A stretch of 62,259 nucleotides of DNA, from the IMG/VR virus record IMGVR_UViG_3300046003_005119, positions 1 through 62,259 of that record. One strand, written 5' to 3'. Positions 130 to 44,449 of this stretch are shown in pieces. The translations under genes were made by a program, and so were the position numbers. The number at the start of each line of letters is the position of its first letter. The stretch's first letter is position 1. Source of the stretch: a virus (lineage: Duplodnaviria > Caudoviricetes). The notes beneath the pieces were generated by a model. That model was given only the letters and a program-made list of their open reading frames with translations. It was not told where the DNA came from and did no database searches.

Positions 130-1270
130 TGGGATCGCCAGCAGATAGACGTCCGTAGCGAACTCCCTTCTGATCTCCCTCCTCGTCCTCTCGTGCGATT
201 TGGTGGAAACTGCAATGGATGCGCCCGTTGATCATGTAACGGCGAATCGAATCAGCGAAGGTGGTCCTGATCTTATTCACCTTGCGAGCTCGAAGAATCG
301 CAGTCGCTACTGGGTGCTTCGCTCCTGACAACAAGGCTTTATCGATCTGAGGCGCTCCTGTCGAAGTTTTCGACAAACGCATACCGATTGCTTCAAGAGC
401 CGGAGCCAATGCTCCAGGCTTCCACACATCACCGAAGTCAATTCTGACACCAGTTTCGTGTTTGATGAATTGCAGAGCCTGACGCTCTTCGGTCTCTGCC
501 CACAGTTCGATCTGTGCTAGACGATCTTGATCGATGAGAACACCGCGCCGCCGCATACGAACCAAACAGGGCAGAACATCAGTCTCCAAATCCCAGATGG
601 AATTCAGACCTCTCTCACCAATTATCTTATCCTGAGCGCGGAGTATCTCAAGCGGAGAAGCACAGTCTTGTTCTGCATACTCACCAACGTATCTCGCCGG
701 AAGTCGCCATAGTCCCTGCTTTGGGTCAAGCCCAAAGGAACGAGCAGCATCCACAAGCATAGTCTCATCCTTGCCCTCGATTCCATAGCGAGCAGCAATG
801 TTCTTAAGACTATACGACATGTGAAGTTCGTAGATGAGCGGATCAGCGATTTGAATGTCACGGAACCTTGCCTCCTGATTCCATTCGAATCCGTCAGAGT
901 AACCGTAGTCCACGTCATAGGACAGGTTCGCTCCTACGTATTCTCCTGTGAAATGCTTGGTCTGATGCCGAAGGTATCCAAGGACGCCTTCGACATCAAG
1001 ATTATCCCCACCCTCGTGTCTGAAAGGGAGATAGTGCTTTGGGCCTCCGTCAATCGCAAAACCCCATCCAACAGTGTATCCATCACGAAGAGCGCCTGGA
1101 CCGAGTTCACGGATCTTAGGATCTCGTGTTTCACAGTCAATCGCGATTCTCTTGGCTCCCTCCCAGTTGGGGAGATCGCTGAGAGACGGAGGGGACCATC
1201 CAGACTTCGGAGTAAAGAACCCAAGCTGAAGAGGCCCTCCTTGATTGGGATTACTTTTCTTCTTTACCAC
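4..1270 (-). CDS. polA: DNA polymerase family A, N-terminal part (3'-5' exonuclease and thumb); continues across the junction into 61340-62257
   Basis: Missing from the ORF track because it runs off the edge. Manual translation from GTG 1270 gives AIDCETRD (ExoI), GANLSYD (ExoII), YAEQD (ExoIII) and YGRLSAGDPNMQQ, in frame with the ORF at the other end. Joined protein is about 686 aa. Confidence 0.9.
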
Positions 1271-1373
1271 GGCTTTCGATCCATTCCTTGAAACGAATTG
1301 CTGGATCCCACTTCGGCGGAAGCAGGATTAGGACTATGACGATTATCATCAATATCCAATTGAGAGTGGTCAT
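1251..1373 (-). CDS. Small membrane protein (40 aa)
   Basis: MTTLNWILMIIVIVLILLPPKWDPAIRFKEW...: one hydrophobic helix; ATG overlaps the upstream stop codon. Confidence 0.55.
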   Translation of the reverse strand: MTTLNWILMIIVIVLILLPPKWDPAIRFKEWIESRGKEEK

Positions 1374-1528
1374 GAGCCATTCTTCCTTTTTATTCTGACC
1401 AGAAGTTTCAAGGACGATACCGCGTTCTCTTCTGTATCACCTTGTCCTTCACAGTTGGAGAACTCACCGCCCAACAGAAGGGCAGTGAATCTTCCAGTGA
1501 AGACGTCTTGATGAAGCGAATATCGCAT
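1370..1528 (-). CDS. Small protein, HicB N-terminal-like (52 aa)
   Basis: MRYSLHQDVFTGRFTALLLGGEFSNCEGQGDTEENAVSSLK; GQGDT-EE-A pattern; coupled to both neighbours. Confidence 0.45.
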   Translation of the reverse strand: MRYSLHQDVFTGRFTALLLGGEFSNCEGQGDTEENAVSSLKLLVRIKRKNGS

Positions 1529-2157
1529 CATCCCTGACCATCATAACCGAATGGAGCAGGATGACCAGTTCCATGGACATCTGTGGGCGTGTTGCTTGCC
1601 GCGCCCTGCCCTACAGCACAAGCAGCGGCCCCATAGGGCAGGGCAGGCGCGGGGCTTGCGGGGCTTGCGGGTGCTAGGGTAGCGCCCAAGGCTTGCGCCC
1701 CTCCAGCGGCCTTCCCAGCGCTCCGGATTAGGGCATCCAACAGCTGAATCGCAAATTCAAGTTGCTCGCGTCGCTGCCAATCAGACAGAATGCAGCAGAA
1801 CTGGTATTCAAGATCGGGTAGGTTGTTCGCCTTCTTGAAGCGAGCGTTCAATTCGTCGATGTTTTCGGGAGCTTCGATGGACAGCGCGTAGACTGCATCG
1901 AAGTTGACGATCATCTTCTGAACGTAGGTTTTCGCCTTCAGCAAGTCCTGAAGGCCGTTCTTCTTCCACCAGCGCGAAACATACTTCGTCGCGCATCCCT
2001 CGAGATAGCCGAGGCCGACATCAATAGCCCAGTCCCAATGCTGATACTCAGCCTGATAGTGTTCTCCACCCTCTTGGGCAACGAACACTGACTTCCGACA
2101 CATGCACATATTCGTGTCGTGGCCACAGGTGTCACAGTTGGTGTTTCCCATGATCAA
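1528..2157 (-). CDS. DUF3310/SaV-like (T7 gp1.7-like) protein with Ala/Pro-rich tail
   Basis: GGEHY...GYLEGCATKYVSRWWKKNGLQDLLKAKTY signature. Confidence 0.75.
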   Translation of the reverse strand: MIMGNTNCDTCGHDTNMCMCRKSVFVAQEGGEHYQAEYQHWDWAIDVGLGYLEGCATKYVSRWWKKNGLQDLLKAKTYVQKMIVNFDAVYALSIEAPENIDELNARFKKANNLPDLEYQFCCILSDWQRREQLEFAIQLLDALIRSAGKAAGGAQALGATLAPASPASPAPALPYGAAACAVGQGAASNTPTDVHGTGHPAPFGYDGQG

Positions 2158-2702
2158 ACTCCCAGATCGGGCAGGAACGCCCAGTCAGAGTTCTTGCATT
2201 CATGGAAGAGATTGAGAATCGGCTCGGGGAACCTTGCAGCGTCCCGCTTGAACCGGTCCTCGATCGCGGTTTGCATCGTGGTCAAGTTCAGGTTGCCAAG
2301 ACGCTTCTGATCTCTGGCATACAGGTAGAGTTCGAGAATATCGAGGCCCTTGAGCCAGAGATGGAGTTCTTCACTCAGACCGATGAAGTGCTGCTCGCCG
2401 AACAGTTCTTGAAGAACATCGAGTTCTTCCAGAACGACAGCTTCGTTGCTGTTGTGATAGACGTGTTTCAACGCCGGAGAAGGAACGTCTCCGATGACAC
2501 GCTCCGGGATATCGTGCTCGACGATCGCCCAGATGAGTTCCTTGGGTGCATCAACCCAAAGAAGGCGCAGCAGAGTCAGCATGTTGAAAGAGTGATGACC
2601 ATTGGAATATTCGCCAATGGTCCTGATAACATGCAGTCTCTGCACGTCAGCAGCTTCGCGCAGAAACTTCACACGCTCTTGATTTGTGAGCAGCTTATAC
2701 AT
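2154..2702 (-). CDS. HD-domain 5'-deoxynucleotidase (YfbR-like)
   Basis: VQRLH, YSNGHHS, EHDIPERVIGDVPSP, LKGLDILE motifs. Confidence 0.8.
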   Translation of the reverse strand: MYKLLTNQERVKFLREAADVQRLHVIRTIGEYSNGHHSFNMLTLLRLLWVDAPKELIWAIVEHDIPERVIGDVPSPALKHVYHNSNEAVVLEELDVLQELFGEQHFIGLSEELHLWLKGLDILELYLYARDQKRLGNLNLTTMQTAIEDRFKRDAARFPEPILNLFHECKNSDWAFLPDLGV

Positions 2703-3671
2703 TCACTTGATCCTCCGGATGATATATTCACGACAGGCTTTCTGCCAGTCAGTTGCGGCGCATTCTCCAATGGCTTTGAGAGCCATCTCGTGATCCTTGG
2801 CTTTGTGCCAGTTCCACGCTCGAAGCATCGGCAGCGCCACTCGCTTGAAGAACTTGTCGCGATAGCCGATGACTTCTCCATGCTGAACAAACATCTCGAG
2901 ATCTGCCATCCAGTCCTCGATCGGACCGTTCACCATCGGATACGGCGAAACTTCGCCGCTTTCGTATTCAGCTGAAGCAATCGGAAGAGACAAGAGACTG
3001 GAGTGCTTCTCGAAGGTCGACATATATGCGTGGAAGTTTGTTGAGATCTGTTCATAGATGCCGACCTCAACACCGATCCACGCCGCGACGACTTCCTGCA
3101 TCATCGAGAAGTGAACAGCGTTCGCACCGTATGCACCCCAGATCATGTCGTTGGAACGGTTGAAGACATACATGTCCAGCCGACCGTCGACGATACGGAA
3201 GTTCACCATCTGGTTGCAAGGAAAGTCCTTGCCTTCACGACCGAGATCAGAAGCAGGGTCCCACATTCCCATCGATACACGACGGTCATCCGGGTTCTCC
3301 TTCAGAAGCATGGCACAAGTCGCCAACTGATCGACACCGAACCACTCGCGCCAGCGATGACCGTAGGCTCCATGGAAGGTGACACCATCATCGCTGTAGT
3401 TCGCGATCGATCCGTTGAATCGACTGATCCACTCAACATCGTTGCGACCAGCAATCATCCAGAGGCCTTCCATAAAGTGGAAGAACGGATTTGCATCCCT
3501 TTCAGGGAAGAACATCACTCGCTCTTTGGGCTTCTTGTAGACTGTAGTCACAGGAGTCCTGAACACCCTGACAGGACCGTTGCGGCTGTCGCGAAGAATG
3601 CCTTCGTCACGAACAGTGTGAAGCCCAAGGAGAAGGGCTTCAGAGACGTTGCGGACAGTGATCACTCTCAT
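2703..3671 (-). CDS. Thymidylate synthase-fold enzyme, probable dUMP hydroxymethylase
   Basis: GAYGHRWR, PDDRR, catalytic PC (DFPCN), RSND..WG...N with Asn at the dUMP-specificity position, NFHAY; neighbours are modification genes. Confidence 0.85.
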   Translation of the reverse strand: MRVITVRNVSEALLLGLHTVRDEGILRDSRNGPVRVFRTPVTTVYKKPKERVMFFPERDANPFFHFMEGLWMIAGRNDVEWISRFNGSIANYSDDGVTFHGAYGHRWREWFGVDQLATCAMLLKENPDDRRVSMGMWDPASDLGREGKDFPCNQMVNFRIVDGRLDMYVFNRSNDMIWGAYGANAVHFSMMQEVVAAWIGVEVGIYEQISTNFHAYMSTFEKHSSLLSLPIASAEYESGEVSPYPMVNGPIEDWMADLEMFVQHGEVIGYRDKFFKRVALPMLRAWNWHKAKDHEMALKAIGECAATDWQKACREYIIRRIK

Positions 3672-4954
3672 TATGCGAGAACTCCAAAGTGGTTGAACAT
3701 GAGATCCGAGTATTTCTCTCGGATGGATGGATCGTCAGTTCCACGAATCGTGTCGATGGAACCGAAGGCGAGATCGATGACTCGCTGAGCGACGATCTCA
3801 CGGTCGAACATCGGCAGAAGCTGAAGCGCAGCCTCGCGATAATTCGCGGCGAGTTGGTGGCTCATTTCGCCAACCTCGAGCACGAGATTCGCGTATTGCT
3901 CCGGATCGATATGACCATCAGGGATATCCCAGTAGTGAACACCAGCCTCGAAGATCGAATCACCCATTCCCATCGGTCTCGCAATGGGAATAGCACCATG
4001 GATCATAGCATCAACGACAACGCGGTTCCAATGACCGCCGACAGCGGCATATTTGCGCGACCAAGAAGGATCGACAAGAGCGCGGGCGCTTCCGAGCATC
4101 TCTTCCACTTTGGGCGTGTTCCAGTAGCCCTCATGAACCATACCATTCTCAAGAGCAACTTCCCAGAAGCGACCGCCCTGACCACGGCTATCAATCGGAT
4201 GGTAATACTCAGGCTTGCACTTGTCCTCGCTCGTCATGTATTGATACTCGATGCCGAGACCTGCGACATGCCGATATTCGTCGTCACGCTTGGGCGGCAT
4301 GTAGGCGATTGCCTCGATCAACTCGTGAGCATGTTTCCACGCCTTGAAGGTCTGCATGTTGACGAAGCCACGCTTGCGTTCTGCCCAAGAAGCGACCTTC
4401 CGCACTGGGTTGAACTGAGGATTCACGACCAGCGCCCGAGGTGTCGTCAGAAAGTTGGCTCCGTTCAGAGCGCAGTCATGAACGCAGGCAATACCAGAAA
4501 GCTGATCTTGGATCGCCAGAATATGCGGCGCTCCTGACTTTACGTTTCCGTCGTGAACGAAAGCAATCTGCTTGATCGATCTCGGCAGATCATACAGATT
4601 GGTCCATTCATGGTTTCCGAGGTTATCCTTGTTTTTGCTCGGAACAGGAACCGTCCAGATGATAAGGTCATAATCGACCATAATCTGTTTCGCGGTTGCC
4701 AGCGCAGCCGATCCCTTGTAGGCAATCCGGTCATTCCGACGGAAGTTCCAGCCCTTGCCTTGGTCGTGTGGGATTCCACTTGGGCCGACGATCCAGTCAC
4801 CAGTCTTGTTTTGTTCGTGAGCCTTAATGGCATAGACGAACTGTTTGAGATGGACTGTGTGTCCAAGATCTTTCAATCCACCGATCAACTGCTCAGTGTG
4901 ATTGATGATTCCACCAAGGTCCATGACCTGATGCAATGCAACGAGAATTCGCAT
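3671..4954 (-). CDS. GT-B fold glycosyltransferase (probable DNA-base glycosyltransferase)
   Basis: MRILVAL...GGI..H...L...L..LGHTV N-terminus; AFVHD; LVDPS...VVVDAMIHGAIPIA C-terminal GT4-like motif. Confidence 0.8.
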   Translation of the reverse strand: MRILVALHQVMDLGGIINHTEQLIGGLKDLGHTVHLKQFVYAIKAHEQNKTGDWIVGPSGIPHDQGKGWNFRRNDRIAYKGSAALATAKQIMVDYDLIIWTVPVPSKNKDNLGNHEWTNLYDLPRSIKQIAFVHDGNVKSGAPHILAIQDQLSGIACVHDCALNGANFLTTPRALVVNPQFNPVRKVASWAERKRGFVNMQTFKAWKHAHELIEAIAYMPPKRDDEYRHVAGLGIEYQYMTSEDKCKPEYYHPIDSRGQGGRFWEVALENGMVHEGYWNTPKVEEMLGSARALVDPSWSRKYAAVGGHWNRVVVDAMIHGAIPIARPMGMGDSIFEAGVHYWDIPDGHIDPEQYANLVLEVGEMSHQLAANYREAALQLLPMFDREIVAQRVIDLAFGSIDTIRGTDDPSIREKYSDLMFNHFGVLA

Positions 4955-4980
4955 GATACCCCCTGTGCTTTACTCGACCT

Positions 4981-5009
4981 ACAATAGCCCGCACGGGGGC
5001 AAAAGACAA
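4981..5009 (-). promoter_or_regulatory. sigma70-like promoter for the glycosyltransferase/TS operon
   Basis: TTGTCT-N17-TATTGT on the minus strand. Confidence 0.55.
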
Positions 5010-5012
5010 CTT

Positions 5013-5201
5013 CTACTTATCTCTGCTTGCACTACTTTTGATTGCGAAGATAAGCATGATTAAAGGTGTGAAGCCTGAGAATAGGAACATAAAGAACGCT
5101 ACACTCAGGCTCAGATGTTTCTTCTTGATATCATACCAGAAGAGACTCAGCATGAACCACATTGACCACCAGACAATGAGCCAGAAGAGCCAGTTAGGCA
5201 T
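5013..5201 (-). CDS. Small two-TM membrane protein
   Basis: MPNWLFWLIVWWSMWF...; start moved to ATG 5201 to avoid a long overlap. Confidence 0.55.
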   Translation of the reverse strand: MPNWLFWLIVWWSMWFMLSLFWYDIKKKHLSLSVAFFMFLFSGFTPLIMLIFAIKSSASRDK

Positions 5202-6084
5202 GATACTTACTTCTGGGTTTCCCCTGACCAAGACGAACTCGTTCATACTTATCGAACTCGCAGAACGCGAATTGGATATCAGTGGGAACAAGTCTCCCGT
5301 CGTGAGTCCACAGCATCTCTTGCCATTCGCCGATCTTCCGAATTATGTCCATGGATCGTTGTTCAGTGAGAGGAGTTGCAGAGTCATCGCCCAAGAGACG
5401 AGCAGCACCACGACGAGCTCCAGGACCGATAGGAGTCCAGCTATCCCAGTCGACGGGATAAGAGAACGTCCCGTCCTTGGAATGCTCGAACGTCTCGTTC
5501 CAGAAACCAGTGTAGGTCGTGTCGAGCAGAACTTCCTTGGTCATGAAACCAGTTCCACCGAAGCCGCCGATCATACGCATCCGATCAGAGACTTCTTCCC
5601 AGCTTTGGGTCTCTTCAGCAATCTTCACGAGTTGCGGTGTCTTCGCGTGAAGATCCTTGAGAAAGTAGTCGACAACCACTTCCTGCTTCGGAGCGGAGAT
5701 ACCTTGGTTTGTGATGACATATGCTCCGGTAAACACTCGTTCGCGCGAAGCCAGACGTGATTCTGCCAAGTCCTTAATGCCATCAAAGTCGAACGTGTCA
5801 TACTGTTGCCATCCGATCGCTTGTGCAAATTCCCAAGTGCCGAAGTATCTGTATAGCGCACAGTTCATGAGGATGGTGCGCTTGTCATCGTTGAAGTTCG
5901 GCCCATAGAAGAGCCGACGAAGCTGATCGCTCGTGCGATCGTGATGTCTCCTCACGTTTGTGAATTTGTAAGTCCGTAGGATCTCGTCATCAGTCCACGG
6001 AAATGAAAAACCCGCCTCCTTCCGGAGGCGGATCTCTTCGCGTTCGTTGAGATAATCGTAGAACGCTTGCGCCCTGAGGCCCAT
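5194..6084 (-). CDS. aGPT-Pplase1 family (5-hmdU DNA kinase helical-domain-like) protein
   Basis: ERE.IR.RKE.G..FPWTDDEILRTYKFTNVRR..DR, FTGAY, GPGARRG, CEFDKYER...G.G.PR motifs of the family. Confidence 0.8.
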   Translation of the reverse strand: MGLRAQAFYDYLNEREEIRLRKEAGFSFPWTDDEILRTYKFTNVRRHHDRTSDQLRRLFYGPNFNDDKRTILMNCALYRYFGTWEFAQAIGWQQYDTFDFDGIKDLAESRLASRERVFTGAYVITNQGISAPKQEVVVDYFLKDLHAKTPQLVKIAEETQSWEEVSDRMRMIGGFGGTGFMTKEVLLDTTYTGFWNETFEHSKDGTFSYPVDWDSWTPIGPGARRGAARLLGDDSATPLTEQRSMDIIRKIGEWQEMLWTHDGRLVPTDIQFAFCEFDKYERVRLGQGKPRSKYHA

Positions 6085-11064: not shown

Positions 11065-11141
11065 TGGCGATCCTGGGAGGAATCGAACCCCCGACCCGCC
11101 GCTTAGAAGGCGGCTGCTCTATCCGGCTGAGCTACAGAATC
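11065..11141 (-). tRNA. trnR-UCU: tRNA-Arg(UCU)
   Basis: GATTCTG/CAGGATC acceptor stem, TAGCTCAG..GGATAGAGC D arm, anticodon loop CT-TCT-AA, GGTTCGATTCC T arm, encoded CCA. Confidence 0.95.
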
Positions 11142-21360: not shown

Positions 21361-21986
21361 AGAGCCTCCATGCACTCGAAAGTGATTCCATAGATGCTCA
21401 TGCTGTTGATATCCCACTGGGTTAGCGGATCTTTGAGACGGAACTTTCCGACACACCCGCTGACGATGACTGCGTCGTTATCAGCAGGAGAAGATCTCAA
21501 GGTCGGCCAGATATCAAGAGTCACCTGACCAGTTCCATCGGAGTTCGCATCAACGAGAACCTTGTGCAGCTTCGAACCTGAGCCAGTCCCAAGTTGAATA
21601 TAGTCACCAGCCTTCAGATATCCAGTCGCTGAGAGAGGAGCACCATCGATGATGAGGCTGCTCCCAGTTTGAGATGCACCTTTCACCAACGGAGTTCCAG
21701 GAGCAGTTGAAGCCGAACCCTGAGGAGTTGCACAGTTGGGATCAGAAAGCAAGAATGTTCCGACCCTTCCGTTGAGACTCAGAAGGAATGAGATCCAAGG
21801 CTCAGCCTTGTTTCTCAAAAACGGAGAGATCTTGACCGTTGCCTCCCACCTCTTTCCAGGATGAGACACAACCTGCTGGTTGAATCCATACGGAGACATA
21901 CTGAGCGCGTCAGCATTGACAGCCCGCAACGAGATTTCCTCAATCGCGTAGCCAGTAGGGAGAGACAGAGGGTATGAGATTGTCAT
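21357..21986 (-). CDS. Distal tail protein
   Basis: Directly after the tape measure gene; MTISYPLSLP...SPY...QQV...G.RWEA. Confidence 0.7.
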   Translation of the reverse strand: MTISYPLSLPTGYAIEEISLRAVNADALSMSPYGFNQQVVSHPGKRWEATVKISPFLRNKAEPWISFLLSLNGRVGTFLLSDPNCATPQGSASTAPGTPLVKGASQTGSSLIIDGAPLSATGYLKAGDYIQLGTGSGSKLHKVLVDANSDGTGQVTLDIWPTLRSSPADNDAVIVSGCVGKFRLKDPLTQWDINSMSIYGITFECMEAL

Positions 21987-24900
21987 TATCCACCAAACGC
22001 ATTCTTCATCTGTCCACCTCTTCTGCGAGCGTCGATGATTGCGCTCTTGGTCTTATCAACGATAGCCGGAACAGCTTTCATGATCTCAGAACGAATTGCA
22101 GTTACGTCGACGCCAGACCCACTGACATGAATGTCATTGTTCACGATGATAGTGTCGCCACCAGACCCAGAGGCCTGAACTCCAAGCTTCCCGTTCGCAC
22201 CTCTAGTGAGAGGCATGATCGCCTCTGGGCCAGCTTCACCCATGATGCCGAGGCCAGTGTTGGTCTTGAACATAGTCGCTCCGGAAACGACGCCACCATT
22301 GGCGAACTTCCGCAGCTGAGAACCTTGGCTCCAGACACCACCATCAGCTTGTTTAGTGAACGCCCCAGAAATAAGACCAATGAGACCAGTTCCAGTTCCA
22401 GTGGAGGCGTTGAAAGAACCAACCAGCCTCTGCACAACGAGAACTCGATAAAGTTCCTTGATGATCTCGTAAGCCATCTTCTTGAAAGCTTCTCCCATCG
22501 TCTGAGTTCCCTCGACGATTGACATGAAGGCTTCTTCCATGGAAGATTTGATTTTGTCAGAAATCGATTGCATCTGAGCGATTGCTTCTTTCTTCGCGTT
22601 CAGAGCCTCAATCTCCTTAGTGACATTATCGATCTCCAGCTGAGAGTATTTATCACGATCAGCACTCAGTGCAGTCTCAACCTGTCTTTGGGCTTCAGAC
22701 AACCCAAGGAGACGAGTTTCAAGCGCAATCTGTTCGCGGAGTTTCGCGAGAGCATCTTCGGATGCACCACCTCCACCACCTGCTCCATCAGGAAGAAGTG
22801 AATCCTGAAAGTCCTTGAGATCCTTCGCGTCCTTAGCCTTGTTGAAGAGAGCCAGGAAGCCCTCTTTAGCTTTCGCGACGAAGCCACTGTTCGCAAATCT
22901 GCTGAGAGCATTTGAAATGCCAGTTGTGATTCCTCGCAGAGCGCCGAAGGAAGAACTCAAGACAGCCAGTAGCTCTCTTGCTTTATCGATTGCAGGCTGA
23001 ATCATAGCAGCCAACATCTTGATCTTTCCTCCAAGAGTGTCAGTCGCTCCGCCAGCAGCAGCGATGACTCTCTCTAGAGCCTGAACTCTGGACAGCTGGA
23101 TAACCATCTGATCAGAAACGCTTTCAGCGATCTTGAGACTTTTGATAGTCGTCAAGAGATTTTCCATCTCAGTTCTTTGTCTCTGCTTCAGGACCTCGAT
23201 TGAATTTTCTCCGTATATTACAGACAGCCTGAGGATCTCAGCTTTCTCTCTCATCGGAGTGAGAATTTCCATCGCCTTCTGGTATTCAGCATCACTTTCA
23301 GCACGAGTTTGTCCCATGAGCTGAAGTTGCTGTCCCCACGTTCCGACCATGAACTGTCTCAGCTCACGCATTCTGAACATCTGTTCATTCTGACGGATCA
23401 GTTCTTGGACAATCATCTTTTCTTGGTTCAGGGCGAGCTGAGCTTTCATCGCGAGATCTGTGGCAGAAGCTTGAAGGCTCACTATCTCAGATTCAGTCGA
23501 TCCAGACCCAAGACCAGAGGAAGGATCGAACGTATAAGGATTCGCAGCCGCGGACTCTACATTCGCCTGTGCGACGTCTCTGATCGATGCCGCCAGAGCT
23601 CTGTTCTCTGCCGAGAGAGCTTTTGCCGTAGAGAGAGCCTTTGCTCCTCCTCCTGAGGCATACTCAGCCATCGAATCGTTCAGTTGCTCTTGGACTGATT
23701 TCAATTCCTCAGTTGCATCAGTCTGCAAAGACATGTAGAGCTGAACCGCAAGAAGACCAGTCAGAAGAATTCCGATAGGATTCGCCATGATCGTAGCGAA
23801 CAGAGCCATGAATGCGCCACGAACAGCACCAATAGCGACAGCAACTCCAGGAAGGACAGCGCGGAGCCGGACGAACCACCCTAGCGCCGCTGCCTGTGCA
23901 GCCGCTAGGCGCGTGGTTGCAACGGCAAGCCCCGTAGCCTGCGCCGTAGCCTGTGCAGCCGCTAGGCGCGCAGCCTGTGCGGCCTGCGCGCCAAATGCAG
24001 CCTGTGCAGCCCGTGCAGCCGCTAGGCGCGCAGCCTGTGCTGTCTCAACACCCTCAACAATGGAAAGTTTCTGAGAAAGATTGATCAAATTCTGCTTCGC
24101 GATCGCAAGGTTCACGAATTGACCAGTCTGAGCGTTTCTGGCAACGCCATTTCTGATCACATACTGTGACTCGAGAACTTGCTGCTGCAAGAGCAGTTTC
24201 TTCTGGGCGATGAGAGCAAGATTCTGCTGAAGTTCAGCCTGACGACTCGCGTATGCTGCGAGAGTTGTTCTGGTCTCTATGTTAGCTGCGGTTACGACAG
24301 CAGCAGATTTTGCGACGACCGCTGTCCGTATAGCGATCAGCCTCTGCAGAACTTCAGTCTGCTTTATTTGGGCAGCTTTCAATCCTGCAACGTAAGCCAT
24401 GACAGCGTGAATAGCTTTTCCTGCGAATACACCAGCCAGAGTCACGCCGACAGCAGTCGCGGTGACCATGATTCCTTTCAGGTTATCAGCGATACTGATG
24501 ATCGCCATAGAAACCTTTTCAGAGAAACCGGTTGCATCATCGAATGCGTCCAGGAGGGCCAAGAAGGAATCTCGAACAATACCAAGAGACTGGCCAATCG
24601 TCGGAACGAGTTTCGCGAAGTCCTTATCAATTCCAGCGGCAGAGTTTCTGAAAGCTGCGAGGATTTGATCAGCCGTGATCTTTCCTTCAGTTCCAAGCTG
24701 ACGGAGTTCACCACGGGTCACACCGAATTGCTTCGCGATGATGTCCGCAACCAGAGGAAGCTGTTCCAGAATTGAACGAAGTTCATCGCCGCCCAAGCGG
24801 TTTGACGAGATACCTTGCCCAAGCTGAATGAGCGCAGCGTTCGCTTCTCGAGCGTTCGCACCAGATAGAACAGCAGCCTTGCTCACAGACTCAGTAAATC

Positions 24901-25267
24901 TAAGCAACTCTTTCTGCGAGACACCGAGTTCTCTTGCAGACAGAGCCGTTCTGTTATAGATCTCGTTCACGCCTTCGAACGAGGTTCTTGATTTCTTTGC
25001 GATCTCAAACAACTGAGTCTGAACATCTTGCAGGTTCGATGCAGAGATCGTGGTCAGCTTCAACCTGTTTTCATAGTTCGTAAGCAAATCGAGCTGACTG
25101 GTCAACCCTCTCAGCAGACCAGCGCCACCGATGACGAACAACGCACGCTCAAGAAGAAAGATGCTTCGAGTTGCCCTGTTCGCGGCCATGCCAAGTTCGT
25201 CAAGATTTCTCTTGATGACATTCGTTCCGTTTTCACGGAAGATGATATTGACGTGTTCAGTTCCCAT
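21986..25267 (-). CDS. Tape measure protein (1093 aa)
   Basis: QLGQG.....L.GDELRSILEQ tape-measure domain; FANGGVV...MGEAGPEAIMPL C-terminus. Confidence 0.95.
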   Translation of the reverse strand: MGTEHVNIIFRENGTNVIKRNLDELGMAANRATRSIFLLERALFVIGGAGLLRGLTSQLDLLTNYENRLKLTTISASNLQDVQTQLFEIAKKSRTSFEGVNEIYNRTALSARELGVSQKELLRFTESVSKAAVLSGANAREANAALIQLGQGISSNRLGGDELRSILEQLPLVADIIAKQFGVTRGELRQLGTEGKITADQILAAFRNSAAGIDKDFAKLVPTIGQSLGIVRDSFLALLDAFDDATGFSEKVSMAIISIADNLKGIMVTATAVGVTLAGVFAGKAIHAVMAYVAGLKAAQIKQTEVLQRLIAIRTAVVAKSAAVVTAANIETRTTLAAYASRQAELQQNLALIAQKKLLLQQQVLESQYVIRNGVARNAQTGQFVNLAIAKQNLINLSQKLSIVEGVETAQAARLAAARAAQAAFGAQAAQAARLAAAQATAQATGLAVATTRLAAAQAAALGWFVRLRAVLPGVAVAIGAVRGAFMALFATIMANPIGILLTGLLAVQLYMSLQTDATEELKSVQEQLNDSMAEYASGGGAKALSTAKALSAENRALAASIRDVAQANVESAAANPYTFDPSSGLGSGSTESEIVSLQASATDLAMKAQLALNQEKMIVQELIRQNEQMFRMRELRQFMVGTWGQQLQLMGQTRAESDAEYQKAMEILTPMREKAEILRLSVIYGENSIEVLKQRQRTEMENLLTTIKSLKIAESVSDQMVIQLSRVQALERVIAAAGGATDTLGGKIKMLAAMIQPAIDKARELLAVLSSSFGALRGITTGISNALSRFANSGFVAKAKEGFLALFNKAKDAKDLKDFQDSLLPDGAGGGGGASEDALAKLREQIALETRLLGLSEAQRQVETALSADRDKYSQLEIDNVTKEIEALNAKKEAIAQMQSISDKIKSSMEEAFMSIVEGTQTMGEAFKKMAYEIIKELYRVLVVQRLVGSFNASTGTGTGLIGLISGAFTKQADGGVWSQGSQLRKFANGGVVSGATMFKTNTGLGIMGEAGPEAIMPLTRGANGKLGVQASGSGGDTIIVNNDIHVSGSGVDVTAIRSEIMKAVPAIVDKTKSAIIDARRRGGQMKNAFGG

Positions 25268-35366: not shown

Positions 35367-36905
35367 TCAATAATGTCCAGAAGTTGAGCCAGTTCCGCCC
35401 ATATTCGAGATATGACGAACGAAATATCTCGTTTCGTCAGCGATGTGATCTTCGGCATCCGTGTTCACGTCGTCCTGATCTTTCTCATCTCTGGGCAAAA
35501 CTGGCACCGTTTCGATGAATGACAGACATTCGTCGAAGATGAACATTCCAGGCTGTTCACGAGGATACATGAGAAGGACATCCTCTTTAGTCGGATGTTT
35601 TCTCATCGTCGGATGAGCATTTTTCAGCCTCTGACGCATCTGGTTCCAGCCTGTCACACGCGATCCAGGACGTTTATCAGCCGGAGCCCACTGAATTCCA
35701 GGATACTTGTTTCCATCATCCAATCTGACTTTGACTTTCATGTCTGTCGCGATGCAGTTGCCGTTCTCAGCGGCGAAAATCTGCGAGTCAGCGACTCCGC
35801 CCTTCACTCGACACCAGTCTTCACCTGGAATTCTCCAGTTCCACGCCAGCTCTTTCTCGACAATTCCAGCCGCGATGTCAGTCGCGAGCATTCGGAGACC
35901 CTCGTTGGGCTTTCCTGTCGAGCCATACCATTCTTTCACACGGAAAGAGTCTCCCTTGATCGTCGAGCGCCATGATCCATCACGAAGCTGAACGTCTTCT
36001 CCATTCGAAATGGCCCACCAGCCCACAGAGAAAGGCTTCGATTCTCCCCAGTCGAAGGAGCGGATGATACGCCAATTCAACGGTATCTCAAAGTTTGAGA
36101 TTACATTAAATCGAGGTTCCCATACATCGTCGAACATACCGCCAGCGACGATGTCCCATGACCCTTCGAGCCATGCTTTCTTCTCCGCCGCGTTTCTCGC
36201 TGACGCTGCAATCTTCTGTTTGTATTCAGGATCGGCCTCGAGCAGAGCCGTGTTCTCGTCGATATGCGAGTGGATGCTCAGGCGAGGAGGCTCGGAGTTC
36301 CCTTCTTCATCTTTCAGATCGCGACGGACGATCATGTTCATGCTGTTGGGCTTGAACCTGTGTTTCACCCAGTTGTGACCGGGACCATATGGGTTCGTCG
36401 TCGCGCGAACCATACGAGGCATTCCCTTTGTCGACGAACGACAACACGAGAACATCCTCTTGTAGCCCTCATCATTCGCCCAGTTGCACAACTCTTCCCA
36501 ACCAATCCAGGGATATTCGTGACCGTGATAGTTCCAATAGTCGTCAGCTTTCATGAACTGGCGAAGCAGAAGCTGTTCTCCTCCAGGAAACGTCCAGACA
36601 TGCTCGGAGTTGTTGAATTTCGCTTCCGGCCAGATCTGAGGGATCCACTTTTTCGTTTTCGAGATAATATCCGTCAATTGTTTATACGTTTGACGGAATA
36701 GAATTCCCTTCCAGCCAGCCCCGTATCCCTTTCCGACGTGCATACAGAAGCTCATAATCAATGAGTCTGTCTTGCCGCCTCCGCGAGTTCCTTCGAACAA
36801 GACTTCGAAGATTGGGTGAGCTGCGAGGAAGGCCTCTTGGCTTCCTCGCATGGGTCGCCAAATCACGTTCTTGGGGAATTGCATACTCATTTCAGCACAT
36901 ACCAT
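35367..36905 (-). CDS. terL: Terminase large subunit
   Basis: GTRGGGKT, WEEL, TTNPYGPGH.WVK, RSFDWG, EDHIADE.RY. Start probably 36887 or 36881. Confidence 0.95.
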   Translation of the reverse strand: MVCAEMSMQFPKNVIWRPMRGSQEAFLAAHPIFEVLFEGTRGGGKTDSLIMSFCMHVGKGYGAGWKGILFRQTYKQLTDIISKTKKWIPQIWPEAKFNNSEHVWTFPGGEQLLLRQFMKADDYWNYHGHEYPWIGWEELCNWANDEGYKRMFSCCRSSTKGMPRMVRATTNPYGPGHNWVKHRFKPNSMNMIVRRDLKDEEGNSEPPRLSIHSHIDENTALLEADPEYKQKIAASARNAAEKKAWLEGSWDIVAGGMFDDVWEPRFNVISNFEIPLNWRIIRSFDWGESKPFSVGWWAISNGEDVQLRDGSWRSTIKGDSFRVKEWYGSTGKPNEGLRMLATDIAAGIVEKELAWNWRIPGEDWCRVKGGVADSQIFAAENGNCIATDMKVKVRLDDGNKYPGIQWAPADKRPGSRVTGWNQMRQRLKNAHPTMRKHPTKEDVLLMYPREQPGMFIFDECLSFIETVPVLPRDEKDQDDVNTDAEDHIADETRYFVRHISNMGGTGSTSGHY

Positions 36906-37572: not shown

Positions 37573-37752
37573 CGTGGATCACGAAAATTCAGTTACACTC
37601 ATTCTCGCTGCTCACGCAAGTGCAGCTTCTCATGAGTCTCGTGAGGCTCGTCGATTCGTTTCGAATTTTGGTTTCTTGTTTCTCGGTTCTTGATCTTCGT
37701 AGGATTTCGAATGATGTGGGTGAAGGGGCGGGGAACGGGACCGCCAGCCATA

Positions 37753-37820
37753 CGCCCCACGCGCAAGCCGTGCGTGGGGCGGGGTGGTAGCGGTTGCCTG
37801 CCCCGCAACGGGGGCAGGCG
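37753..37820 (-). terminator. Two GC-rich hairpins downstream of the Ala-rich gene
   Basis: CGCCCCACGC/GCGTGGGGCG and GCCTGCCCC/GGGGCAGGC stems. Confidence 0.55.
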
Positions 37821-37832
37821 GTTGCTTTGGCG

Positions 37833-38315
37833 CTATGCCTTGGCAGGCGCAGGCGCGGGCGCGGCAGCGGTTGCCACAGGCGCGGCAGCGGCAGCGGCAG
37901 CGGTTGCCACAGGCACAAGCCAAGCCTGCGCGGCGGCCCATTGCGGCATGTTGTGGCGCTGCCAGCCCCCATTTGGCGGGGCAAGCGTGGGGCTTGCGGC
38001 TGCACTGGCCACCAGCGCGGCGCGGTATTGCGCCAAGGTAAAGCCGTTGGGCTGCACCTTGGCAAGCGCCTGTGCCACTTGGCAGGCAAAAGCGCGGTGG
38101 CCACGCTGCCCCACAGGCCAGCCAGCGCTTGCGGCTGCACTGTAGGGCATATAGGTGTAAAGTGCCGCGCCAATGGCCACAGCAACGGGCGCGGCGGTTG
38201 CGGTTGCAACGGGCGCGGCGGGCGCGGGCGCGGTTGCGGTTGCGGTTGCAACGGGCGCGGGGGCAGTAGCCTTGCCAGCGGTTGCGGTTGCGGTGTTTTT
38301 GTTAGCTTGTGCCAT
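37833..38315 (-). CDS. Ala/Thr/Pro-rich protein with no Asp or Glu (160 aa)
   Basis: Preceded by the AGGCTACCA leader and a promoter, followed by hairpins; lies wholly inside the GA/TC-free island. Confidence 0.7.
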   Translation of the reverse strand: MAQANKNTATATAGKATAPAPVATATATAPAPAAPVATATAAPVAVAIGAALYTYMPYSAAASAGWPVGQRGHRAFACQVAQALAKVQPNGFTLAQYRAALVASAAASPTLAPPNGGWQRHNMPQWAAAQAWLVPVATAAAAAAAPVATAAAPAPAPAKA

Positions 38316-38369
38316 TGTGGTAGCCTTTGGTTACAGGGTAGCAGCACCATTGCCGCTATGCCCTGCCCC

Positions 38370-38399
38370 TATATAGCGCCATAGCGCGGCAAAAGCCAA
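38370..38399 (-). promoter_or_regulatory. Promoter of the Ala-rich gene
   Basis: TTGGCT-N18-TATATA. Confidence 0.5.
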
Positions 38400-38524
38400 G
38401 TAACATGTTGTTACAGATTGTAACAATTTGTTACCGGAAATGCAGTAACGTTTTGTTGCAGGCTGTAACAATTTGTTACCGGAAATGCAGTAACGTTTTG
38501 TTACAGCCTGTAACAATTTGTTAC
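38400..38524. repeat. Array of six GTAAC-N5-GTTAC palindromes (45-bp tandem period)
   Basis: Boxes start at 38400, 38420, 38445 (one mismatch), 38465, 38490, 38510. Confidence 0.9.
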
Positions 38525-38693
38525 CGGAGACGAGAGACCGAACGAGAGACCTACCGACGAAGATGAAGATGACGAGTGAGATCTCCTCTGTCGGTTCTGT
38601 CGTATCGGTTCATGACTGTCGGTTCGATGATGAAGAAGATGATGAGTGTCGAGCCCAAGAAGAAAGAGCCTCAATCGGCTCTTTCTTGTCGGT

Positions 38694-38882
38694 TCAGTCG
38701 TAGACGAACGACTCGAGGTAAGTGTCAATCACATCGCCATCTTTCGAAACGAACTCTGTCACCTCATACCCGTGGTGGTTCACATTAGTCCGCTTCGTGA
38801 GACCCTCTATCTCTGCTGGGACAGAGCGATAGATCGTGACATGACCTCGCCGATTGGTGCGAATATACATCTTATCGCTCAT
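38694..38882 (-). CDS. Small early protein
   Basis: ATGA-coupled to the upstream ORF; GGAGG RBS. Confidence 0.6.
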   Translation of the reverse strand: MSDKMYIRTNRRGHVTIYRSVPAEIEGLTKRTNVNHHGYEVTEFVSKDGDVIDTYLESFVYD

Positions 38883-39088
38883 GCCCGACCCTCCGCACGA
38901 ATGGCCTGACGCACGGCCAGCGGCGTCTCAACGCCGTGGGCGAAGGCGGGGCGGCAGACTTGGATGACGCCGCCGCACTGTGAAAAGCGACGAGTCAACG
39001 CGAAGATCTGACGCTGGAGCGACTGACGGTCGTCGGCCAGACGACCAGTGAACTCTGCGCGCTCTTTATTCCAAGGATTGATCTGCAT
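38879..39088 (-). CDS. Small early protein
   Basis: AGGCTACCAAATG leader. Confidence 0.65.
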   Translation of the reverse strand: MQINPWNKERAEFTGRLADDRQSLQRQIFALTRRFSQCGGVIQVCRPAFAHGVETPLAVRQAIRAEGRA

Positions 39089-39286
39089 TTGGTAGCCTTT
39101 CGGTTTGGGTTAAGTTGCCGTAAGACCATGTTATTACACAGAAATTTAAGAAGCAACTCATTTATATCCAATCCTCCGGACTCATATCGGAAGAGGCTCC
39201 CGATGAAGAAGATGAAGAAGATGAAGATGACGAGTCTCTCATCCAGATCTTCTTCATCATCTTCATCTTCTGTATGCTCTCAGACA

Positions 39287-39316
39287 ACAGAAGAGGTGGA
39301 ATTCCACCTCTTCTGT
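39287..39316. repeat. Perfect 30-bp palindrome / terminator-like hairpin
   Basis: ACAGAAGAGGTGGAA-TTCCACCTCTTCTGT. Confidence 0.8.
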
Positions 39317-39325
39317 CGGCCCTTT

Positions 39326-39592
39326 CTACGAGGTCAGGACGATATCGGCGAGATACGACAGACCGTCGCAGATATCTTGGGTGGTAAAGATTTCGGCGCC
39401 GCTGACGGTGTGTGCGATGACCAAGCCGTTCTCCATGATGAACAACTGGCCCGAGACTTCGTAGCCTTCTTCAAAGTGACGCAGCCACACCATGGATTCG
39501 TCGATGATTTCAAAACGAACTTCGGGGATGACCTCATCACAGTGAAACTTGATGTCGGCGATTTCGGCGGGGGTGAACTTGCGATTGAGCAT
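39326..39592 (-). CDS. Small acidic early protein
   Basis: Leader motif before ATG 39592 (MLNRKFTPAEIADI). Confidence 0.65.
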   Translation of the reverse strand: MLNRKFTPAEIADIKFHCDEVIPEVRFEIIDESMVWLRHFEEGYEVSGQLFIMENGLVIAHTVSGAEIFTTQDICDGLSYLADIVLTS

Positions 39593-39749
39593 AGCTGGTA
39601 GCCTTTCTTGGGTTGCCTTGCCCTTACAGTATAGCCCAAAGAGGGTGGAGAGTGTAGCACTATGAATCGTGGTCTTCGTGGCCGGAAGATGATGAAGATC
39701 TCGTCGGAAGAGGCCGACGAGCATAGAGAAATCCCTATGCTCTGTCGGT

Positions 39750-39965
39750 TCAGGCTAGCGCCCCTGCAACTGCTTTTTCAAAGGCTTCCAGCTTTTCCAC
39801 CACTTCGACCATGTTCGTGCATGTCGGGCTCATGGTCATCTCGATCGTCCCCCAAAAGTTCATCAACTTCCGCGTGGGGTGGTGGTATTGCGCCACAAAT
39901 TCTTCTTCCGGATCCTGCCCTTCGCGGTAGTAAAGCAGGTAATCGCCAGTGTCTTTCGTCAGCAT
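39750..39965 (-). CDS. Small early protein
   Basis: Own promoter and leader motif. Confidence 0.65.
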   Translation of the reverse strand: MLTKDTGDYLLYYREGQDPEEEFVAQYHHPTRKLMNFWGTIEMTMSPTCTNMVEVVEKLEAFEKAVAGALA

Positions 39966-40000
39966 TTGGTAGCCCTTTCATTTGGTAGCCTTGCCCTTAC

Positions 40001-40029
40001 AGTATGGCAGTTAGAAATCTGAGAAGCAA
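40001..40029 (-). promoter_or_regulatory. Early sigma70-like promoter (copy 1)
   Basis: TTGCTT-N17-CATACT; same sequence at 40413-40441. Confidence 0.75.
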
Positions 40030-40068
40030 TTCATATATGTCCAGTCTTCTTCATCTATATGAGATACC

Positions 40069-40103
40069 GATGAAGATGAAGATGAAGATGAAGATGAAGA
40101 TGA
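40069..40103 (+). repeat. (GATGAA)n intergenic microsatellite
   Basis: Five full units plus GATGA; related tracts in neighbouring spacers. Confidence 0.85.
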
Positions 40104-40144
40104 TTCCATCGGAGGAGGCCGACGAGTCCCCACACTCTGTCGGC

Positions 40145-40378
40145 TCACTCGGCTCTTAGAATGAGCTTCATGAGCTCATACAGATCGTCACAGAACGTAA
40201 CGAACCCGAGCTCGCTGATATAGATATGCTGCTCTCCGCTGATGTAGCCGACGTCTCCCATATCTGTGAAGACTTTGTTATCCTCTGTATCAGCGATACC
40301 GTTACCGAGTGTGCAGATATACATGGAGATGTCCTCCAGTTCTGCTTCGGTGAAGTCACGCGGCTCATAGATTTTCAT
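40145..40378 (-). CDS. Small acidic early protein
   Basis: Own promoter and leader motif. Confidence 0.65.
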   Translation of the reverse strand: MKIYEPRDFTEAELEDISMYICTLGNGIADTEDNKVFTDMGDVGYISGEQHIYISELGFVTFCDDLYELMKLILRAE

Positions 40379-40412
40379 TTGGTAGCCCTTTCATTGGTAG
40401 CCTTGTCCTTAC

Positions 40413-40441
40413 AGTATGGCAGTTAGAAATCTGAGAAGCAA
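40413..40441 (-). promoter_or_regulatory. Early sigma70-like promoter (copy 2)
   Basis: TTGCTT-N17-CATACT. Confidence 0.75.
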
Positions 40442-40603
40442 GTCATGTATGTCAGGTCTTCTTCTCTCTCGTCCCGTTCTTCTTCATCATCTTCTATATC
40501 AGAAATCGAGGATGAAGATGATGAAGAAGATGAAGATAAAGAAGATCGCCATACCTGTGAAGATACGGCGATCGACTGACTCTGTCGGTTCAGTTCTGTC
40601 GGT

Positions 40604-41293
40604 TCAGAAGGGATCGTCGTCCTCTGTCGGCTCGTTGGAGAGCCCAAGAGGAGTAGGAGTGACATCCTTCGCTTGAGAGAATCGCTTCTCCCAATCATCG
40701 ATACTCGTCATTTCAGCTGGAGCGACGAGAACACCGCCAGAGTGATTGACAGCGATTTCCTGCTTGTCACGGTATCCGGCGTCGTGCTTCTTCAATTCAA
40801 GTTCGATCAGTCGTATCGGGTAGACTGTCTCTCTGGAGACGAGGCCTCCATTGCGATCGAAACTCTCCTTGACTGTCCCGTTGAAGACGAGGTCTTGATG
40901 GTGACCGATCAGTTTGTCCTTGTATGCAGTTTCGGCGAGAAGCATCGCTTCAGCGAAGTCTTCATCTTCCTCCAACGCTTTCCGGACTGTCTGAGGTGAG
41001 ACACCGGCGGCTGCTGCGCTCTCTCCCATCCGTCCCCATTTCATGAATTCGTTGAGGAATCGGCCCTTCGCAGCTTCGTCAAAACGATTGCGAGCCATGC
41101 GAACGACTGTCCGCCATTCACCGGTTTCGGGATCCTGTATATCCATCGCCTCGACCCTCGATCTACGAGACAACAGAGAGCGAGGAGCCTGACGAGCGCG
41201 GAAAGCATCATCATCATATCGGTCTCTGTAGGACTTCGGGTCTTCATCGTCGCTCATAATTATCTCTCCATCTATCCGCGTCAACTTGATCAA
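40604..41293 (-). CDS. terS: Probable terminase small subunit
   Basis: HTH FL......G....SAAAAGVS.QTV......DEDF.EA; C-terminal N.SGGVLVAP. Likely start 41257. Promoter TTGCTA-N17-TAAACT at 41311-41339. Confidence 0.65.
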   Translation of the reverse strand: MIKLTRIDGEIIMSDDEDPKSYRDRYDDDAFRARQAPRSLLSRRSRVEAMDIQDPETGEWRTVVRMARNRFDEAAKGRFLNEFMKWGRMGESAAAAGVSPQTVRKALEEDEDFAEAMLLAETAYKDKLIGHHQDLVFNGTVKESFDRNGGLVSRETVYPIRLIELELKKHDAGYRDKQEIAVNHSGGVLVAPAEMTSIDDWEKRFSQAKDVTPTPLGLSNEPTEDDDPF

Positions 41294-44316: not shown

Positions 44317-44449
44317 ATCTTTTGTGTGCCTTTGGTTATGGGGGCAAGCGGCCCCTGTTTTGAGACCCCAACGGGGCCGTCAGAAGGCCGCTGGAGGGGC
44401 GTTGACTATGCCCCCGCTAGGGTGGTAGCCTAGCGGGTGCAAAGGGCCG

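Follow-up and report, generated by a model that had tools for sequence, protein, structure and literature searches.

A 122-bp run free of GA and TC in the DUF3310 linker of an uncultured freshwater phage, a putative modification-free access window

The phage genome examined here, IMG/VR record IMGVR_UViG_3300046003_005119 (the 62,259-base window that we analysed is the whole virus record), carries within a gene for a DUF3310 protein a 122-nt run that contains no GA and no TC dinucleotide. The TC/GA step is read on the duplex DNA of this phage: it is favoured over nearly the whole genome and kept out of a few stretches with sharp limits, of which this run is one. On balance we lean towards the explanation that the run is a selectively maintained, modification-free access window from which TC has been purged on both strands. 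The parts of this explanation differ in strength: selection at the DNA level on the run is very likely, a TC-specific hypermodification is probably the reason for that selection, and, if both are granted, there is about an even chance that the patch serves as an access window. The features concerned are as follows.

1581–1702, no strand assigned: GA/TC-free island of 122 nt, 72% G+C, encoding the linker of the DUF3310 protein on the minus strand.
1528–2157, minus strand: predicted DUF3310/gp1.7-like nucleotide-kinase homologue, 209 aa (PF11753).
1543–1554, minus strand: codons of the PFGY motif (residues 202–205), invariant in 13 of 13 aligned sequences.

The run is bounded by a TC at 1580–1581 and another at 1702–1703, contains zero GA or TC between them, and lies about 310–430 bp upstream of the start codon of the DNA polymerase gene. 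Genome-wide, GA/TC sites occur at 0.177 per base, or one in every 5.6 bases. No other dinucleotides are as over-used as GA and TC, whose observed/expected ratios (o/e) are 1.465 and 1.375, respectively (1.44 for GA/TC outside the islands); TA is depleted (0.44). In Markov simulations (60 each at order 1, 3 and 5) the longest GA/TC-free run averaged 39–40 nt with a maximum of 53, and runs of at least 40 nt numbered about 0.5 on average and two at most, as against nine in the window (677, 170, 122, 58, 49, 46, 45, 45 and 44 nt), the first three of which are extreme outliers. An earlier reading of this DNA from its sequence only had reported the 122-bp run and proposed a comparison of run lengths with a Markov null; the distribution does not fit that null, and the run is confirmed as non-random both here and by the synonymous resampling described below. 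When all ten strand-symmetric dinucleotide classes are treated alike, only GA/TC lies far above expectation (677 vs about 48), the other nine staying at or below about 1.6 times the expected value. Avoidance of restriction sites and other short motifs is likewise a selection on a short DNA word that is independent of coding, but it is classically genome-wide and partial; that pattern of genome-wide under-representation is not found in this genome, where the word is enriched overall and absent in sharply bounded patches only. Over the whole window the o/e is 1.4–1.8 for ATC, TTC, TCA, TCG, TCT, GAA, GAT, CGA, AGA and TGA and just 1.0–1.15 for TCC/GGA, CTC and GTC/GAC, so that the favoured word may exceed two bases (about WTCD); the islands nonetheless exclude every TC.

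Judged from its profile matches, the protein of open reading frame (ORF) 1528–2157 is a DUF3310, gp1.7-like nucleotide-kinase homologue: PF11753 matches residues 50–80 at 25.8 bits (cut-off 24), and PHROG matches are to phrog_5839 (E 1e-27) and to 'nucleotide kinase' families (E 2e-12 and weaker). Its layout comprises an N-terminal CxxC...CxC, a helical domain to about residue 155, a disordered linker at 153–202 and the C-terminal PFGY. An AlphaFold2 model built from 13 sequences has a confident helical domain to about residue 155 and pLDDT values (the model's own confidence measure) below 50 at 153–202, and the peptide encoded by the run, GAQALGATLAPASPASPAPALPYGAAACAVGQGAASNTPT (about residues 153–192), is thus predicted to form a disordered linker; as had been noted from the sequence, it is appended after the recognisable domain. 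Foldseek found no match to this model in the PDB at E <= 0.001. Homologues from cultured phages align to residues 21–144 only (80% query coverage in 0 of 106 records) and are without the tail of this clade, a point that the earlier reading had proposed to check. The likeness to the T7 gp1.7-type/DUF3310 proteins of cultured phages consists of the N-terminal domain match and of gene position, the gene standing between an HD-domain gene and the polymerase gene (polA) as in phage M6. The additional helical region, the linker without acidic residues and the PFGY terminus are specific to this uncultured freshwater clade. A C-terminal FGY motif is present in 70 of the 120 database homologues listed; in these 70 the linker is of low-complexity Ala/Gly/Pro/Thr composition, and the longest stretch of each without Asp or Glu, 43 aa at the median, directly precedes FGY in 54 of them. 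The version of the protein held in the protein collection (P0098) has 186 aa and starts 23 codons later than the 209-aa reading, whose N-terminal CxxC...CxC is conserved in six of the related loci introduced below (L001–L004, L006 and L009).

A linker of this kind might lack GA and TC for ordinary reasons, namely amino-acid composition, rare codons or chance: disorder is predicted for it, Asp and Glu are missing from it, poly-Ala is GA/TC-free of necessity, and the homologues just mentioned have acid-free linkers too. Synonymous resampling of the island peptide, however, gave a mean of 9.3 GA/TC sites, and 0 of 20,000 recodings were GA/TC-free. When only codons without internal GA/TC were allowed, the codon junctions would still be expected to hold 4.8 sites (P(0)=0.003 in the window), and the same junction-only avoidance is seen in eight relatives (P 5e-5 to 0.1), that is, in 9 of 9 loci. 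Avoidance at codon junctions goes beyond codon choice and rules out a rare-codon cluster or any other translation-level cause. In addition, GA/TC density is ordinary, at 0.09–0.21 per base, in further Ala/Gly/Pro-rich segments of this genome that lack acidic residues, and this disposes of the idea that low-complexity linkers are all GA/TC-free. Resampling, the junction test and these other segments together refute amino-acid composition as a sufficient cause, and an ordinary linker is a very remote explanation of the run.

Codon usage shows the same opposition between island and genome. The genome favours GA/TC codons (ATC 0.68, TTC 0.78, GTC 0.43 and GGA 0.35, with TCN at 0.76 of Ser), and the island uses AGC, CCC, CTA and GGG instead; AGC accounts for every one of the 17 Ser codons in the tail islands listed, a count that omits the rows for L004 and L010, against a background AGY share of 0.25–0.34. 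At codon junctions genome-wide, GA was observed 1459 times vs 1010 expected and TC 1232 times vs 764 (z about 24 each, with synonymous codons shuffled within genes as the expectation), and outside the islands GA/TC is favoured in all codon phases. Such over-use indicates that the step is beneficial almost everywhere. In 9 of 9 loci the sense strand of the linker avoids GA and, separately, TC. Such symmetry between the strands is what a feature of duplex DNA should show.

The run was followed in 19 related loci from viral contigs, fifteen of which (L001–L015, of 7–13 kb) have the tail or its position and four of which (L016–L019) are high-GC relatives without it. Three sets of loci count as one lineage each (L007/L008/L015, L002/L003 and L006/L012), leaving about 11 distinct lineages among L001–L015. 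The longest GA/TC-free run of the locus falls at the linker position in 14 of the 15, and its length is 82–144 nt in 12; the four high-GC relatives have no such run, nor an analogous island for any dinucleotide. In L010 the ORF ends within the GC-rich stretch and the GA/TC-poor DNA runs on as non-coding sequence. The linkers vary in length and sequence among relatives, and since their peptides and DNA are barely alignable, what is conserved is the avoidance and not a sequence. The sequence-only reading had named, as grounds for doubting itself, a tail written with GA/TC-containing codons in relatives; those that have the tail keep it GA/TC-free, so that the reading is not refuted on this ground. 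Recent changes point in the same direction. One third of the possible single substitutions in the island would create GA or TC, and at least 16 substitutions between close pairs of loci created none. A variant strain in metagenome run X3, about 96% identical, has 8 differences in 1581–1702 among those listed (a lower bound, since 85 further differences over 1000–3000 lie beyond those listed), and its set of GA/TC sites is identical.

These comparisons bear on the possibility that the run is a mutational product, a GC-rich linker born by replication slippage under a local motif-erasing bias, with no selection for a function of the DNA. The linker contains short repeats (two copies of the ASP-ASP codons GCAAGCCCC) and varies among relatives as just described, the islands are all Ala-rich, and one of the other islands, in the tape-measure gene, is confined to one lineage. 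GA/TC-freeness nevertheless persists over about 11 lineages whose linker DNA can barely be aligned; neither the substitutions between close pairs nor the listed strain differences made a site, though a third of changes would; and synonymous and junction positions elsewhere favour GA/TC, so the genome-wide bias is the opposite of the one called for. Decay of TC to CC in particular was rejected for lack of CC/GG enrichment in the islands (o/e 0.86). We regard a mutational origin as improbable.

A constraint at the RNA level would require the mRNA and an antisense transcript to lack GA and UC, or a hairpin to form, for instance in escape from an endoribonuclease or in ribosome pausing. The window does have a strong hairpin at 1603–1644, with arms GCCCTGCCC and GGGCAGGGC, as do L001, L005 and L007, and fold z-scores of -4.0 and -2.2 were obtained for L001 and L005. 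The hairpin is absent in L002/3, L004, L006/12, L009, L011, L013 and L014, and z-scores are near zero or positive in the window (-0.1 and +0.2), L013 (+1.35) and L014 (0.0); present in four lineages, missing in others and with mixed scores, a conserved RNA or DNA hairpin was rejected. GA and UC are both missing from the sense strand, which no single cleavage specificity explains, and the largest island of the genome (677 bp, below) spans non-transcribed promoter DNA as well. Rfam 15 at the gathering score finds one match only in the whole record, a tRNA at 11068–11141, and none in 1581–1702, a result that covers described RNA families. An RNA-level cause is accordingly one to which we give little credence.

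If selection thus acts on the DNA itself, a reason for it may lie in the following genes.

5194–6084, minus strand: 5-hydroxymethyldeoxyuridine (5-hmdU) DNA kinase (HMUDK_hel; PF18723, E 1.8e-36).
2703–3671, minus strand: thymidylate-synthase homologue, candidate deoxyuridine monophosphate (dUMP) hydroxymethylase (PF00303, E 4e-20; phrog_5131, E 9e-123).
3671–4954, minus strand: GT1-like protein between the thymidylate-synthase homologue and the kinase (PF00534 at 21.6 bits, below the cut-off of 26.4; no PHROG match).

The kinase profile scores 123.7 bits in this record, above its curated cut-off, matches 0 of 14 control genomes, and is above the cut-off in all five full-length relatives. By its sequence the thymidylate-synthase homologue could be either a hydroxymethylase or a methylase, and the GT1-like protein may be a candidate transferase of the modification pathway. 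Taken together, the kinase, the over-use of GA/TC at junctions and the dinucleotide specificity published for other systems lead us to take TC as the modified thymine context in this clade and the islands as modification-free, a reading drawn from sequence and from those published analogues.

The mechanism that we propose would then run as follows. The phage would replace thymine by 5-hydroxymethyluracil and, after replication, decorate part of it by way of the 5-hmdU DNA kinase, the decorated thymines presumably being those before C. The saturation of the genome with TC/GA would follow from this targeting of TC, and any stretch from which TC is missing on both strands would stay plain DNA. 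Such a patch would have been placed in the one part of the DUF3310 gene able to host it, the disordered linker between the helical domain and PFGY, which can be written with codons that lack GA and TC (Ala, Pro, Gly, Thr, Gln and AGC-Ser). Its likeliest role there would be that of an access window for a protein or process unable to work on decorated DNA. One may go further and suppose that the clade writes a map of decorated and plain DNA into its sequence, that the linker was recruited as host for a cis-acting access site (for example for loading of a replication or topology factor, or for wrapping, upstream of polA), and that a design at the DNA level dictates the amino-acid alphabet in parts of proteins, with Asp and Glu missing from the linker and from the entire winged-helix-like protein of the largest island; this extension is tentative, and we hold it to be possible but doubtful.

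Thymine modification restricted to a dinucleotide context has precedents. Work on phages M6, ViI, phiW-14 and SH-Ab 15599 describes modification of just part of the thymines, in the context TG/TC (PMC6449724, PMC13458397): the resistant restriction sites of the first three contain TG/TC, and a kinase specificity for TS was proposed (PMC6449724), while in SH-Ab 15599 modification falls mostly at TG and less at TC (PMC13458397). These papers report modified sites and not stretches purged of the site. The present phage has in common with the 5-hmdU kinase phages (M6 was compared) the kinase, a thymidylate-synthase homologue, a family A polymerase and a DUF3310 gene next to polA, and it has distant DNA similarity to M6-like, Bordetella and Stenotrophomonas phages. 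It and its relatives differ from the TG/TC phages in that the context suggested by composition is TC alone (CA/TG o/e 1.0–1.2), and in that the motif is strongly over-used with site-free islands of 120–1000 bp, of which M6 has none in its first 50 kb. Enzymes of other kinds are described with preferences for precisely this step: the phage T-dioxygenase 5mYOX97 prefers NTC (PMC13229309) and the DpdA of phage iggy has a strict GA motif (PMC10484667). Phage DNA-modifying enzymes can thus target exactly this dinucleotide, though by means different from the kinase route, 5mYOX97 being an iron/2-oxoglutarate (Fe/2OG) dioxygenase and DpdA a deazaguanine transglycosylase; neither family was found among the proteins covered by our Pfam scan, about 34 of the roughly 80 in the window.

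A more distant likeness is to vertebrate unmethylated CpG islands, where DNA is locally free of a mark that is otherwise set on a dinucleotide throughout the genome. CpG islands retain that dinucleotide and are shielded from the enzyme, whereas here the target is deleted from the sequence, and the organisms and the chemistry are unrelated.

Several results weigh against a modification-free window. The link from GA/TC to hypermodification is drawn from composition and gene content; no amino-acid:DNA transferase was recognised among the Pfam-scanned proteins; and the first 50 kb of phage M6 have no dinucleotide-free island and a GA/TC o/e of only 1.2, so that islands are not a general trait of kinase-bearing phages. 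The runs of L004 and L011 are just 43–49 nt and not significant alone. The tape-measure island is not conserved, and it follows that not every island needs a conserved function. Across relatives no DNA motif is conserved in the linker island beyond the codons of a semi-conserved G.AGG..Q..S.ST peptide, and a sigma-70-like promoter scan of 1300–2200 gave one match (1540–1567, outside the island) vs a shuffle mean of 0.8. With no RNA structure conserved across relatives either, no local function is visible.

Some of the same facts favour a different reader of GA/TC, such as a nuclease of host or phage, a defence system or a protein that binds DNA, and the island would be a site closed to that reader. 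The statistics show that the dinucleotide matters on duplex DNA and not why it does; M6 has the kinase and, in its first 50 kb, no islands; and a transferase partner is missing from the scanned set. The genome-wide over-use of GA/TC at junctions fits a protective mark better than a nuclease target, kinase and islands co-occur in 5 of 5 full-length relatives, and the published thymine modifications (PMC6449724, PMC13458397, PMC13229309) are dinucleotide-specific. We judge another reader unlikely, if worth serious thought, and keep to TC-directed hypermodification as the probable one. As for the original suggestion of repeated unmodified windows for a processive step, an unmodified window remains reasonable in the light of the kinase, the junction statistics and the published specificities, while ejection, packaging, topoisomerase loading and recombination, the steps then named, found no support.

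The other large islands and their surroundings are listed next.

37740–38416, no strand assigned: largest GA/TC-free island, 677 nt, a full cassette of promoter-like word, orf160 gene and terminator-like hairpins.
37833–38315, minus strand: orf160, without Asp or Glu, with Ala/Thr/Pro-rich tails and a winged-helix-like core.
38399–38533, no strand assigned: three tandem 45-nt repeats (family D3) that contain inverted GTAAC/GTTAC motifs, lie upstream of orf160 and have almost no GA/TC.
38526–40900, no strand assigned: GA/TC-hyperdense zone, up to 0.30 per base and the densest of the genome, directly upstream of the free cassette, with (GAAGAT)n tracts.
23874–24043, no strand assigned: GA/TC-free island of 170 nt inside the tape-measure gene (21986–25267, minus strand), lineage-specific.

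The 677-nt cassette holds the promoter-like word TTGGCTTTTGCC, which is kept in relatives, the 160-codon gene, the terminator-like hairpins and the three 45-nt repeats. The same layout is found in 8 of 9 close relatives by large terminase (TerL) with enough upstream flank, the run of the ninth being cut by the start of its contig. The word TTGGCTTTTGCC has no match in 1581–1702; a one-mismatch copy stands at 4998–5009 (minus strand) in the gap between the kinase and GT1-like genes (4955–5193), a gap that is GA/TC-poor (0.092 in 4956–5075). The sequence-only reading had remarked on words shared between the linker island and the one at 37.7–38.4 kb. Such words exist (GGGGCTTGCGG and GCAGGCGCGGG), but they are not significant and reflect composition, not homology: of 122-mers matched for composition, 35% have an 11-mer in common with the 677-bp island, which rules the words out as a sign of common descent.

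The orf160 family comprises 97 database clusters and has homologues in relatives L020, L023, L024, L026, L028 and L029. Being encoded wholly without GA/TC, it is without Asp or Glu: these two account for 1.0% of residues over the family, and 55 clusters out of the 97 lack them altogether. Members carry Ala/Lys/Pro-rich tails. The family has no Pfam, PHROG or cultured-phage match, and neither tblastn nor a profile search of six-frame ORFs found an acid-containing twin of orf160 elsewhere in the window. An AlphaFold2 model of an orf160 relative has a pLDDT of 81.8; structure comparison of the orf160-family model with VIA-align gave middling winged-helix matches (Z 4–6), a BFVD search returned one relative, and Foldseek found no match in the PDB at E <= 0.001. 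The winged-helix likeness of the core is thus a lead and not a result.

At the place of the tandem repeats relatives have others; L024, for example, has a unit of roughly 40 nt in about five copies, and L026 has (GGGGGCC)7. The switch from hyperdense to GA/TC-free DNA is also present in the six relatives that have orf160 homologues, and the hyperdense zone contains ORFs of low complexity, either poly-Ser or acidic. In L020, L024, L026, L028 and L029 the first hairpin is followed by another very small gene free of GA/TC, which encodes a hydrophobic peptide of about 32 aa; no such ORF was found at the corresponding place in the window. A candidate small terminase gene (phrog_4044; 40604–41293, minus strand) and the large terminase gene (35367–36905, minus strand) lie 3.7 kb apart, and the interval between them contains the hyperdense zone, the tandem repeats and the GA/TC-free cassette.

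Among the five full-length relatives, the tape-measure island is absent in G001, G002 and G003 and weak in G004 (43+42 nt) and G005 (74+39 nt); a search for tape-measure relatives by exact peptide words recovered one weak locus only, and the full-length relatives were found by genome search. The weaker depleted patches reported at 14.2 and 44.3 kb do exist, as runs of 58, 46 and 44 nt in stretches without a called gene. The broader picture of a repeated set of windows spread over the genome did not hold up: there are three large islands, which form no regular repeated series, and the tape-measure one is poorly kept in relatives. An exact 19-nt inverted repeat, CGCCCCTCCAGCGGCCTTC, occurs at 1696–1714 and 44383–44401, so that the linker island is connected at its upper edge with a GC-rich patch at 44.3–44.45 kb in which no gene was called; by a rough estimate about 0.01–0.03 pairs of this kind are expected by chance.

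The record itself is a circularly permuted assembly, since the family A DNA polymerase gene is split across both of its ends. By codon statistics the minus strand holds 75 of 76 gene calls. Metagenome runs with this sequence come from lake, freshwater and groundwater, and the nearest cultured phages by DNA are distant (60–80% identity over short pieces), namely M6/YuA-like Pseudomonas phages and phages of Bordetella, Stenotrophomonas and Rhizobium. Besides the thymidylate-synthase homologue and the kinase, Pfam identifies ribonucleotide reductase; further genes encode deoxycytidine monophosphate (dCMP) deaminase, a uracil-DNA glycosylase (UDG)-like protein, DNA ligase, primase-helicase, SNF2 helicase, HNH endonuclease, endolysin and two Pam3-like proteins. 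The only tRNA of the record decodes AGA, a codon that contains GA and accounts for 22% of Arg codons in the phage.

11065–11141, minus strand: tRNA-Arg, anticodon TCT.

We did not find such islands described in a search of the full-text literature (supplementary files lay outside this search). If the explanation favoured here is right, the context targeted by an unmeasured DNA hypermodification of uncultured phages could be read from their sequence alone, as could the places where such phages need plain DNA. The linker would also be a rare and clean case of a duplex-DNA constraint overriding protein coding, one that keeps Asp, Glu and many frequent codons out of a conserved linker and, elsewhere in the genome, out of a whole gene (orf160). 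Motif-free windows would then predict which parts of hypermodified phage DNA are open to restriction enzymes, Cas nucleases, the polymerase chain reaction (PCR) and sequencing chemistry, and they would point to cis-acting sites that are invisible to annotation by protein homology.

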